Source: Candidatus Colwellbacteria bacterium
Lineage (GTDB): Bacteria > Patescibacteriota > Minisyncoccia > UBA6257 > Colwellbacteraceae
Reading direction: 5' to 3'
DNA: 64,000 nucleotides
NCBI GenBank assembly: GCA_028710275.1
Contig: JAQTUL010000001.1
Location: 73,031-137,030 of the forward strand
Position numbers and translations under genes: made by a program. The notes under the pieces are model-generated. The model ran no database searches. It saw only the letters and a list, made by a program, of their open reading frames with translations, and was not told the origin of the DNA. This document shows, one piece after another, positions 29,855 to 32,770 of this stretch (positions within the stretch are counted from its first letter, which is position 1; every line of letters starts with the position of its first letter).

Positions 29855-32770
29855 CTAGACCAGGACACTTTTCCTCGTATTCTGTTTCTCGACCCAATCA
29901 TCCCACTCAACCTCTGTGTTCAGATGGTTTGCGATATTCTTCACATTAGTGAACGACATCTTGCTATCACTCACTCTCACCATTCGCGCGGGATCAAAGT
30001 TGCGTCCATAGTTGAACTGGATAACCATGTTCTTTGAGTTCACAACCAATCCATCACTGTAGGACTTCACGAGATCCTCCATCTTCTTCACCAACTTTCG
30101 TTGAATATATCCAGACTGAGCAGTATCAGCAACCTGAAGACCATTCGCCAACCCAAAGTTAAGTGTACTAGGAATCGTAAGATCGTATAGTTTTTCATGT
30201 CCATCACAAGACATTTTTTCAATTGATACTATTTTATCCAATACGATATCGTTATGAACTTCGAAGTGTCGGTGAGGATTTTTCGGGGTCTTAATCATGT
30301 TCAACTTCTCTTGTTTCACAGAGTCAATCATGGGAATGGTCTCAGCAAACTTCTTAGACCACACATTTGAGATCTGAAGTCTATATGAAGGTTGAATAAC
30401 TTTTGTTCCCAGATTATTTTTCTTAATCTGTACCTTAGAAATCTTACCGAAAATACCAAGAGTGTTACACAATGTACTGATACCCTCAATAAGTTTAGGT
30501 GAAGAAGTTCCAGCCACAATCATATTTCTCTCAACAGCACCATCTCCTGAAAAATATCCGTTCAGGAGGGAGACGATGAATTCTTTAGGAGCTGTATATG
30601 CTTCATTAGGTACAAATTTATTTTTTGCTCCGTGACCAACAAACTTATCAAGGAATTGAGACAACACACTCGATCGACCTCGAACATCGCTTGTAAATCC
30701 TTCGATACCGTTAATTTTAAAGTTTTCAGAAAATTCAATCGAGTGTTTGACAAACCATCCTTTAACAAACTCACGAATTGTATCGTCGTTGTTGGTTATC
30801 TGAACATAATGTCCGTCAGTATTCCCTTCGGCCAGGTACAATCCGATAAAGAGACCGTTGTCAGAATTTAATTCGAAAGAATCCGGGATTTTAATATCTG
30901 TTCTACATCCTGAAAACGGATAGATATATCCATCTTTAATGTTATCGACATTAGATCTAGTTATCACTCGTTGAAGTTTCGCCTTTGACGTATATGGTAC
31001 AGTGAATGTTGATCCGTTATTCTCTTTCCACCAACCTCTCGGAATATGAAATTCTGTCATAGCATTCTCCATGCTGGAAACAGCTACATTAAACTCAGTT
31101 CCATAAACATATTTATCTTTTGGTAGATACTTGGACATATCCACATAATTTTTAACGATTGGGATGTTCATCAGATTCATTGTCACAGGGAGATAATCAC
31201 CCACCTTAATATCTGGAGTATAGATCTGTTCCAACACTCTCTTCTCTTTGTTCCATACAAGAAGAGATTTCGATTCGGCAACCACAACACTTCTCCCACC
31301 ATACGTTGTTACTTTATAGATATTTTTACTAGGGTCATGTCGTGTAGCATGGGAGATCTCCTCCCATGAGACGTTACCATCATTATCCGTAGTTGAAATG
31401 TACGTTTCTTTTTCCAACTCTAATGTCTCCATATTCTGTTCGTCTTGATGAACAATGTTTTTATTCCCATTCATCAAATCATCAATCCATTCTCCGATTT
31501 GTACATATTTAGCATCACCATCTTCAATGATGATGATAGTTGTTTCTTTTGTTACAGATTTCACTGCTGTGTCGATAACACCTTCTCGACCACCCTCTGC
31601 GTGGAAGAAGAACTCTTGAACAGTCAATCCCTCCATGTAACAGTGAGCTACAAATCCTCTGCTTTCATAAAGTAGTCGTCTCTCCATATCCTCTTGTTCC
31701 GGAGTTGCATCTTCCGGATACTCACCCTGTGTCTTGGAGTATGTAGGATTAGTTCGTCCACCAAATGTGAGAGGGATACGCTTACCCTCAACGTTCTGTT
31801 GTCCGACCAGAACTCGGATCTGTGAGTTGTTCACATAGCTACCTTTGGATCCCGCACTGATCATCACGTTCAAGGAATTTTCATACTCGAACTCGTTCTT
31901 GGTGATCAGCTGACCAATTGTGGTTGCGCCGTTGAGCGCGTTATTGACCTTTCGCTCACGCAACTCCGGATCACTCTCTGACGTCTCAATACTTTGAGCC
32001 TCCATAAAACTCTTGGATATCTGGTTCTGAACATCCGTGACTCTGATTGGAAGACAGTCCTCAATTCCGATAGAGAATCCTCGAGCCTTCAGACAGTGAT
32101 TGATCAACCACTGGTAGTAACTGACAAAGTCGATTGTGATCTTCGCTCCATACTCCTTCTCCAGTTTGTGTACAATGGAACTGTGACTGTCACCGAGAAC
32201 CGACTTGTTGAGAATACCCTTCAACATGACACCTCGAACAATTTCAACACCGCTCGGTTCGAACGTGTATTCGAAGTCATCGGGAAGAAGATACGAAAAC
32301 AGACAGTGTCCAGTGTACATGTAATCATCAATCTCCGCCTCAGTAAATTTTTGCCATCGCAAGACGCTCTTGATATGATCCATCTTACGAAAAATGTAAT
32401 CCTCAGTATCCTCTTCGTATGTGATCGAAGAATGTTTTCTCTTTTCGAGTTCAGAGATCTTGGACATAACAGCCGTTCTGTTTCCCGAAATAAACCAATC
32501 GTCCACGCATGTCAGAGCATCATTGAAGAGGACACGATCGATGTAGTTTCGCGGGTTGAACTTACGGACAGTCTTTCCGTTGACAGTCTCGTTGTAATAG
32601 AATCCACGGGTGAAGAGATTTCCACCGGTAAGCGCATCCTGTGTGATTGAGAGTAGAAGACGCGCGTTTTGACTACTCTTCAAGAGAGCAGCAGTTGAGG
32701 ATAATAGTAGTAATTCTGCCACAGCCTCATACGACTGCGGAATATATAAATTCATCTCGTCCCCATCGAA
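29855..32770 (-). CDS. RPB1: DNA-directed RNA polymerase largest subunit (RPB1), exon 3, containing an intein; the frame ends about 90 aa after the intein host site
   Basis: Begins '[13 protein letters not shown]' (the NADFDGDEMN active site). Contains '...[15 protein letters not shown][intein][18 protein letters not shown]' and 'VIQFNYG'. The track ORF start at 32833 is intronic sequence read through. Confidence 0.85.
   Translation of the reverse strand, partial: [971 protein letters not shown]
30125..31558 (-). mobile_element. Intein (478 aa) with a LAGLIDADG homing-endonuclease domain inserted in RPB1 between AVK and TAQSGY
   Basis: N-terminal '[11 protein letters not shown]' (block A). 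'ISHATRHD' (block B). LAGLIDADG motifs '[14 protein letters not shown]' and '[12 protein letters not shown]'. C-terminal '...YDLTI...[12 protein letters not shown]' then +1 Thr. Removing it restores '[16 protein letters not shown]' at canonical length. Confidence 0.75.

Follow-up and report, generated by a model that had tools for sequence, protein, structure and literature searches.

The histidine of splicing block B has been described as the most conserved residue of inteins (PMC4031507), and a 2023 study called it 'absolutely conserved' among the 58 Ser1 inteins that it examined (PMC10189870). Only two inteins without it were known in 2014, one of them a pseudogene (PMC4031507). Functional inteins without the penultimate histidine (position G:6) amount to about 5%, departures at both G:6 and the terminal position (G:7) have functional precedents, and the block F histidine is not universally required (PMC4031507). 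Inteins that end in Asp, Gln or Glu follow the class 1 pathway, with cyclization of that residue in the third step (PMC4031507). Ser1 inteins also have a motif of their own, NX, in which a histidine follows an Arg or Lys and this basic residue pairs with a Glu of a preceding strand; the histidine is critical for splicing, and in the PolB16 intein the block B histidine is dispensable (PMC10189870). The intein considered here lies within a viral gene for RPB1, the largest RNA polymerase II-type subunit, and ends in Ala-Asp. The gene is carried by a 64,000-nucleotide stretch (hereafter the window, meaning the whole stretch that was analyzed) at positions 73,031 to 137,030 of the forward strand of contig JAQTUL010000001.1 in GenBank assembly GCA_028710275.1, Candidatus Colwellbacteria bacterium.

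By sequence and by fold, the closest solved relatives of the window intein are PI-PkoII (the Tko Pol-2 intein, 2cw7; E = 1.3e-15) and the Mja and Mvu TFIIB mini-inteins (5o9j and 5o9i; E = 7.7e-09 and 2.7e-07). All of them share with it Ser1, an Arg-His NX motif, Asp at position F:4 and a residue other than His at the block F position, and PI-PkoII also shares the LAGLIDADG endonuclease. They differ in their hosts, which are archaeal DNA polymerase and TFIIB instead of viral RPB1, and in block B, where they keep the T-x-x-H that has become A-E-S-K in the window. A terminal His-Asn, or at least the Asn, is also kept in PI-PkoII and the TFIIB inteins.

Replacement of the terminal Asn by another cyclizable residue is likewise seen in the Chy RIR1 intein (Asp) and in the Chilo iridescent virus RNR, Pab PolII and Mma PolII inteins (Gln), and the Chilo iridescent virus intein also comes from a nucleocytoplasmic large DNA virus. 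These inteins are isolated cases or small groups and have been treated as evolutionary intermediates; the comparison with the Chy RIR1 intein made here is one by description. The RPB1 inteins differ from them in that Asp has become fixed at two sites of RPB1, across hundreds of diverged copies, and in that the histidines of G:6, block F and B:10 have been lost as well. Absence of the B:10 histidine is a trait shared with Tko CDC21-1, a functional intein. Tko CDC21-1, however, is a Cys1 intein that compensates through Lys58, which lies outside the motifs, whereas the window intein has a Lys at B:10 itself and its NX histidine, His74, is the candidate substitute. The PolB16 OarG split intein resembles the window intein in its Ser1 with Ser/Thr+1 oxyester chemistry, its critical Arg/Lys-His and its Glu partner, for which Glu44 is the candidate in the window (Pasch et al., 2023; PMC10189870). 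It nevertheless ends in Asn, and its block B histidine, experimentally dispensable, is one that the RPB1 family has actually lost.

The RPB1 intein and its C-terminal aspartate

The intein occupies positions 30125-31558 of the reverse strand, to which all coordinates of the RPB1 gene refer. Its 1434 nt form 478 codons, in frame and free of stops when the reverse complement is translated, and correspond to residues 426-903 of the open reading frame (ORF) 29855-32833, which encodes the central section of RPB1 (Pfam Rpb1 domains 2-5). With a slash marking the splice site, the junction codons are AAA/TCT for Lys(-1) and Ser1, and GCT GAT/ACT for Ala477-Asp478 and Thr+1. The N-extein, in RPB1 exon 3 (31559-32770), carries Rpb1 domains 2-5 by Pfam and by alignment to S. 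pombe Rpb1 (3h0g_A). The C-extein (29855-30124) holds the remainder of the bridge helix and about 70 further residues, up to a stop codon at 29855-29857. Once joined, the exteins align to the S. pombe protein across DTAVK/TAxxGY without a gap, and removal of the intein restores the host sequence. This gapless alignment makes the junction unambiguous and fixes the last residues as Ala477-Asp478; the 478-residue insert contains no His-Asn dipeptide near its C-terminus. A sequence-only reading of the window had already placed an intein at exactly these coordinates, strand and frame (its S426-D903), with a terminal Ala-Asp followed by Thr+1 in place of the usual His-Asn, and the alignment and junction codons bear it out. 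The interrupted segment is, as we take it from established Pol II structure, the bridge helix. Given an insertion at the catalytic center, unspliced RPB1 should be inactive.

Pfam recognizes Intein_splicing (PF14890, E = 1.8e-14) and LAGLIDADG_3 (PF14528, E = 1.1e-11) in the insert, with the LAGLIDADG domain splitting the HINT splicing domain. AlphaFold2, given an alignment of 70 sequences, produces a model (pLDDT 95.1, pTM 0.94) that finds its top Foldseek matches in PI-PkoII (2cw7, E = 3e-27), the TliVMA intein (7qss) and PI-PfuI (1dq3). A HINT fold with splicing blocks A, B, F and G, running from Ser1 to Asp478 and interrupted by the LAGLIDADG domain, is supported by Pfam, AlphaFold2 and Foldseek. 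The endonuclease core (about residues 230-420, 30299-30871), of the alpha-beta-beta-alpha-beta-beta-alpha type, also matches I-DmoI and I-Tsp061I in Foldseek, and both of its motifs keep the acidic residue: Glu244 (30827-30829) in motif 1, GLYLAEGN, and Asp339 (30542-30544) in motif 2, GYFSGDGA. The endonuclease is predicted to drive homing into empty RPB1 alleles.

In class 1 inteins the first residue is Cys or Ser, and +1 is occupied by Cys, Ser or Thr. Here block A (N1, residues 1-14, 31517-31558) opens with Ser1 (TCT, 31556-31558) directly after Lys(-1), and the first C-extein residue and second nucleophile is Thr+1 (ACT, 30122-30124). Two other assignments were considered and ruled out: class 3 (Trp in block B, Cys at F:4, Thr at G:5) by Asp459 at F:4 and the invariant Ser1, and class 2 (Ala1, with direct attack by the +1 residue) by Ser1 in all 58 of the 58 family members that reach the N-terminal junction.

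The C-terminal Asp is the rule in a large family. Searching 5.8 billion proteins gave 133 relatives, every one of them within RPB1 and the best only about 50-59% identical. A scan of 1.84 billion cluster representatives gave 2522 matches at E <= 1e-3 and 450 at E <= 1e-30, the latter being sequence clusters at 50% identity, and IMG/VR gave 469 loci, many of them giant-virus metagenome-assembled genomes, of which the best 80 served for codon counts. The 261 proteins retrieved yielded 180 intein copies at the bridge-helix site. All 180 share the same junction, ending in Asp in 173 and in Asn in seven. The preceding residue, G:6, is far more variable (Arg 90, Val 40, Tyr 10, Ala 10, Lys 8, Phe 6, His 4).

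Codon usage at the junctions varies among the 80 IMG/VR loci, none of which shows an interrupted ORF or a stop. The terminal Asp is encoded by GAT in 65 and by GAC in 15, Ser1 by both of its codon families (TCN 72, AGY 10), and Thr+1, present in 82 of 82 IMG/VR intein copies, by all four Thr codons. Family copies with the same residue set share 28-59% identity. The nearest relative (protein P0125, locus L084), with a 92% identical intein from independent samples, has the same QVAD/T and reads ...QVAD/TAHSGY. A member also occurs in Catovirus CTV1, a published Klosneuvirinae genome (ARF09014.1, P0122; ...NGLQVRD/TAESGY); that protein is named only 'DNA-directed RNA polymerase subunit alpha', and its intein appears unannotated. 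Together with the gene content of the window, this match points to a giant virus from the Mimiviridae/Klosneuvirinae neighborhood.

On this comparison, the Asp ending is a conserved and apparently selected trait of giant-virus RPB1 inteins and not a one-off. The sequence-only reading had left open either a variant-chemistry intein or a wrongly placed junction. The variant is the part that stands, with Asp in 96% of copies, written in both codons and under purifying selection (omega = 0.048, below), and the wrong junction is excluded by the gapless alignment. A related doubt is that an Asn was misread or misassembled as Asp in an otherwise canonical intein, since AAT and GAT are one A-to-G substitution apart. 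Because Asp also ends the 92% identical intein from independent samples, a sequencing error or one-off mutation is excluded. With the exact excision of Ser1-Asp478 leaving a gapless bridge helix, Asp in 173 of 180 homologs and no His-Asn near the C-terminus, a canonical intein behind a misplaced junction or a base error is scarcely credible.

The RPB1 trigger loop has two more sites with related inteins, separated by three residues. At the first (.../TLNTFH) the ending is a canonical His-Asn in 22 of 22 copies; at the second (TLN/TFH) it is x-Asp in 32 and x-Asn in six. Carriers of trigger-loop inteins are P0012, P0057, P0061-P0065, P0070, P0076, P0087, P0089 and two IMG/VR loci. P0012 has inteins at both sites, and P0148, a protein of 3346 aa, contains up to nine intein-like stretches. 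One homolog, P0005, carries an Ala at G:7 and appears degenerate. The ORF of many relatives (P0001, P0002, P0020, P0022, P0023, P0032, P0037 and others) breaks after ...D/TAETG, five codons past the intein site, and in a few the break immediately follows the terminal Asp (D/KLV...); the window RPB1 is continuous there. These breaks suggest an intron insertion hotspot adjoining the intein site.

Lost histidines and a retained NX motif

Block B (N3, 31256-31297) reads G88-RSVVV-A94-E-S-K97-SLLV101. In phmmer alignments to the solved Ser1 inteins, A-E-S-K falls on T-S-G-H of 2cw7 and on T-G-S-H of 5o9i and 5o9j. The block B Thr-x-x-His is missing: Ala94 replaces the Thr at B:7, and Lys97 (31268-31270) replaces the His at B:10. 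Across the family, B:10 is Lys in 112 members, Gln in 12, Glu in seven, Ser in six and His in six. This variation (K, Q, E, S, H) suggests that the Lys is dispensable and not compensating. Blocks F and G (30125-30193) extend from K456-LYD459LTIPSTL466 to Ala477-Asp478. The histidine of the block F 'HNF' is replaced by Leu466 (30161-30163) in STLNF, a position that is mostly L or F in the family, and the penultimate His and terminal Asn give way to Ala477 at G:6 and Asp478 at G:7 (30125-30130, GCT GAT). The sequence-only reading saw the last two of these changes; it missed the replacements of the block B His by Lys, the block B Thr by Ala and the block F His by Leu, and it treated a family trait as a one-off.

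The identity of B:10 shows no clear pattern of covariation with G:6 or G:7 in the family. Since the trigger-loop intein of P0012 that ends in His-Asn has Lys at B:10, the two departures are uncoupled, in P0012 at least.

Other positions are firmly held. Ser1 aside, Arg/Lys-His stands at positions 73-74 in 69 of 69 family members, and as RH in 82 of 82 IMG/VR copies. The block F Asp at F:4 (Asp459, 30182-30184) is present in 70 of 70, and Glu44 (31427-31429) is nearly invariant. Thr+1 is found in 58 of 65 members and is missing only where the ORF is interrupted immediately past the intein. Residues T72-R73-H74-D75-P76 (31331-31345) form the putative NX motif, in which R73-H74 aligns to the IRHD of PI-PkoII and the SRH of the TFIIB inteins. 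With an Arg-His pair upstream of block B and a candidate Glu partner, Glu44, in an earlier strand, the window intein appears to have both elements of the published motif. The alternative that the TRH of residues 72-74 is a displaced block B was rejected, as it aligns to the (I/S)RH of 2cw7, 5o9i and 5o9j and fits the NX motif as published. As aligned here, the RPB1 family contradicts the view that the block B histidine of Ser1 inteins is absolutely conserved.

The same window holds a second intein, of 505 aa (53454-54968, reverse strand), inside a D5 primase-helicase ORF (52017-56492) with AEP_C962R, PriCT_2 and D5_N domains. This intein is fully canonical. It begins at AE/CISAGT with Cys1, has the block B T-H-D-H in LVSTHDHPIL and the block F motif IHNF, and its C-terminal junction, IHNFVANGVVVHN/C, ends in VHN/C. 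The unusual residues are therefore specific to the RPB1 intein lineage and not to the genome.

Selection, the splicing route and its alternatives

Between the window intein and that of L084, synonymous divergence (dS) is 0.879 and nonsynonymous divergence (dN) 0.042, for a ratio (omega) of 0.048. The ratio is low in every part, at 0.045 for HINT-N, 0.051 for the endonuclease (residues 131-432) and 0.031 for HINT-C, and the exteins give 0.039 and 0.069. Selection on the intein is as strong as on the polymerase. In some family members the junctions lie only about 180-380 aa apart, which leaves no room for a full endonuclease, and Ser1, RH, the F:4 Asp, the terminal Asp and Thr+1 are still kept. 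That these short members retain their termini indicates that selection acts on splicing itself.

The intein is also more similar to that of L084 than the flanking gene is, with 92% amino acid identity and a dS of 0.88 against 80-86% and 2.3-2.9 for the exteins, and its G+C content is 36.9% against 45.4% in the exteins. Because the intein is less diverged than the exteins and poorer in G+C, these figures suggest a recent horizontal transfer by homing, after the host genes had diverged.

Such constraint bears on whether the insert could be splicing-dead, be it as a decaying element, as part of an RPB1 pseudogene or as an insertion tolerated in the mature polymerase. The loss of the B:10 His, B:7 Thr, block F His, G:6 His and G:7 Asn in the window copy would fit a dead intein, as would an RPB1 that ends 89 codons past the intein and the existence of the degenerate-looking P0005. 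Yet an omega of 0.048 at a dS of 0.88, with no stops, is not the mark of decay, and the same residue set recurs in hundreds of copies at 28-59% identity, with Ser1 and Thr+1 retained through synonymous change. The insertion in the bridge helix, at the catalytic center, speaks against tolerance, and the early RPB1 stop is common to relatives and looks like that of a genuine two-gene RPB1. A splicing-dead insert is very unlikely.

The window element is best read as a functional and still mobile class 1 intein of the Ser1/Thr+1 oxygen-ester type, one of a large giant-virus RPB1 bridge-helix family, that is probably released through its terminal Asp; we give this reading a probability of roughly 0.78. 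Anatomy, junction, family-wide conservation, purifying selection and the signs of a recent transfer are observed, and from there we infer every chemical step of the pathway. Splicing would begin with an N-to-O acyl shift at Lys(-1)-Ser1, aided by the Arg73-His74 NX motif and Asp459 and not by a block B histidine. Thr+1 would then attack the resulting ester to form the branched intermediate. In the third step, the side-chain carboxyl of Asp478 would, by the most likely route, attack its own backbone carbonyl to form a cyclic anhydride, where Asn would form a succinimide, and it would do so with neither a penultimate nor a block F histidine. A final O-to-N shift would leave an intact bridge helix. 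Cyclization of Asp is the most plausible release because G:7 is all but restricted to Asp and Asn, both able to close a five-membered ring.

The intein might instead splice with no cyclization of Asp. C-terminal release would then resolve the Asp478-Thr bond or the branched ester through direct hydrolysis, through a different intramolecular reaction, or with extein residues or a viral or host factor assisting. Residues at G:6 vary widely (R, V, Y, A, F, K and others), the block F and G:6 histidines are absent, and no obvious general acid or base is left beside Asp478. Amitai and co-workers reportedly found in 2004 that the Chy RIR1 intein, the only Asp-ending one tested, was still cleaved at its C-terminus with Ala in that place, and are said to have proposed alternative models. 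A 2014 review likewise qualifies the cyclization of such residues with 'although other mechanisms are possible' (PMC4031507). A structural or hydrolytic role should tolerate Glu, Ser and other residues at G:7, however, and the position is nearly confined to Asp and Asn (173 + 7 of 180), which makes release by a route other than cyclization unlikely.

Several points weigh against splicing through the terminal Asp. The case that family members splice is built on sequence comparison, and it is from alignment to solved inteins that His74, Lys97 and Asp459 are presumed to lie near the scissile bonds. The B:10, block F and G:6 histidines and the B:7 Thr are all absent in the window copy. Loss of the B:10 histidine abolishes the first step in most inteins in which it has been tested. 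The penultimate residue, Arg in half of the family, is Ala in the window copy, and any help from Arg is lost. A second, intein-free copy of RPB1 may also exist outside the 64-kb window.

The surrounding gene and the wider meaning

The RPB1 gene of the window is interrupted at two further points. Rfam finds the group I intron RF00028 at 32781-33081 and 34210-34516, with 93.2 bits each, and the two cores are 97-99% identical. Exon 1 (34565-36394), assigned from Pfam and L084, carries Rpb1 domains 1-2 and ends in ...GDIALFG. It is followed by intron 1 (34200-34564; about 365 nt, without an ORF) and by exon 2 (34062-34199), whose 46 codons run from RQPTLHKGSMIA to KTYNSD and are supported by the reading frames and by contiguity with exon 1 in L084. 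Intron 2 (32771-34061, ends approximate) separates KTYNSD from FDGDEMN, the start of exon 3 at 32770, and contains an ORF (33116-33994) for a GIY-YIG-like protein whose Pfam match (E = 2.6e-4) narrowly misses the cut-off. In the databases searched, this protein is present only on a 1.3-kb Logan contig. L084 lacks intron 1, its exons 1 and 2 being contiguous, and its group I intron at the intron 2 position (L084 2135-2540; Rfam, 115 bits) contains no ORF. Viruses with 92% identical inteins are thus polymorphic both for the presence of an intron and for an endonuclease ORF. As intron 1 is absent from L084 and the two cores are nearly identical, intron 1 is a recent 'offspring' copy of intron 2. 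The sequence-only reading had counted three selfish insertions in this one gene, and the count holds: the intein plus a pair of group I introns, of which one carries the GIY-YIG ORF.

The same arrangement is found in polr2a and polr2b of Bodo saltans virus, with group I introns carrying GIY-YIG or HNH ORFs, 'offspring' copies and inteins (Deeg et al., 2018; PMC5871332). The RNA polymerase inteins of that virus are described without an active endonuclease, whereas the window intein keeps its LAGLIDADG motifs; the splice-junction residues are not discussed in that description (PMC5871332).

RPB1 stops 89 codons past the intein, and tblastn with homologs, even at E = 50, finds no match in the 64-kb window for the rest of the protein (the trigger loop and Rpb1 domains 6-7). 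In two relatives (P0125/L084 and P0063/L082) RPB1 stops at the same place and is followed by unrelated genes. A third intron hiding the missing third of RPB1 was considered and dropped, as P0063, P0125 and L084 stop at the same place. In this lineage, RPB1 looks split into two genes, roughly at the archaeal Rpo1N/Rpo1C (A'/A'') split; by alignment, Rpo1N chains of 880-910 aa end at about the RPB1 stop. Of 80 other IMG/VR relatives, 66 have an RPB1 that runs on for over 400 aa.

Directly downstream of RPB1 lies a 381-aa ORF (28560-29705, reverse strand) of tandem repeats of about 24 aa (72 nt), HPEKPW.W..LS.NP.ITPEFVLA, with only weak, repeat-driven Pfam matches (Ste5, LRV_2), and after it an ankyrin-repeat ORF (27718-28191). 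Two ORFs on the reverse strand, 17392-18972 and 37607-39232, have nine EsV-1-7 cysteine-rich motifs each (E = 5e-89 and 3e-107). Other large ORFs encode 1451 aa with NADAR (11796-16151), 1226 aa with DUF4082 (21647-25327) and 1668 aa with no Pfam match (39239-44245).

Several elements of this picture are already known, though rare: C-terminal Asp inteins, inteins without the penultimate histidine, one functional intein without the block B histidine, and the NX motif. Giant-virus polymerase genes loaded with introns and inteins are known as well, and so is the three-insertion arrangement as such. A 2018 survey of eukaryotic and viral inteins makes no mention of RPB1 and assigns its inteins from viral RNA polymerases to KOG0214 (PMC5784728). 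We take KOG0214 to be the RPB2-type subunit. The searchable literature, in which coverage is incomplete and an earlier description is possible, yielded no account of an RPB1 intein family ending in Asp, and likewise none of an RPB1 bridge-helix intein family or of a natural Ser1 lineage without the block B histidine. A giant-virus RPB1 intein family with an Asp ending is apparently undescribed.

The current understanding of intein mechanism rests on a few 'essential' residues, and the RPB1 family routinely does without the block B histidine and has Asp as its rule. It raises the questions of whether the NX histidine can fully replace that of block B, how a branched ester is resolved at Asp with no histidine nearby, and whether the splicing of an essential viral enzyme is conditional. 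The family offers natural cysteine-free inteins for protein engineering. Giant-virus RPB1 sequences used as phylogenetic markers carry these inteins unannotated, as in Catovirus CTV1 ARF09014.1.

A broader proposal can be put forward tentatively, as a possibility that we hold to be somewhat less probable than not. The RPB1 inteins at the bridge-helix and TLN/TFH sites may form a large natural clade without the three classical histidines and the terminal Asn, in which splicing runs on Ser1, Thr+1, the NX histidine, the F:4 Asp and the terminal Asp, and in which Asp is the selected, optimal state and not a transitional defect. If so, the clade would be the first abundant model for protein splicing through an Asp anhydride and a source of cysteine-free, histidine-poor inteins. 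Because cyclization of a carboxyl needs the protonated acid, splicing of RPB1 in these viruses might then depend on pH or on other conditions.

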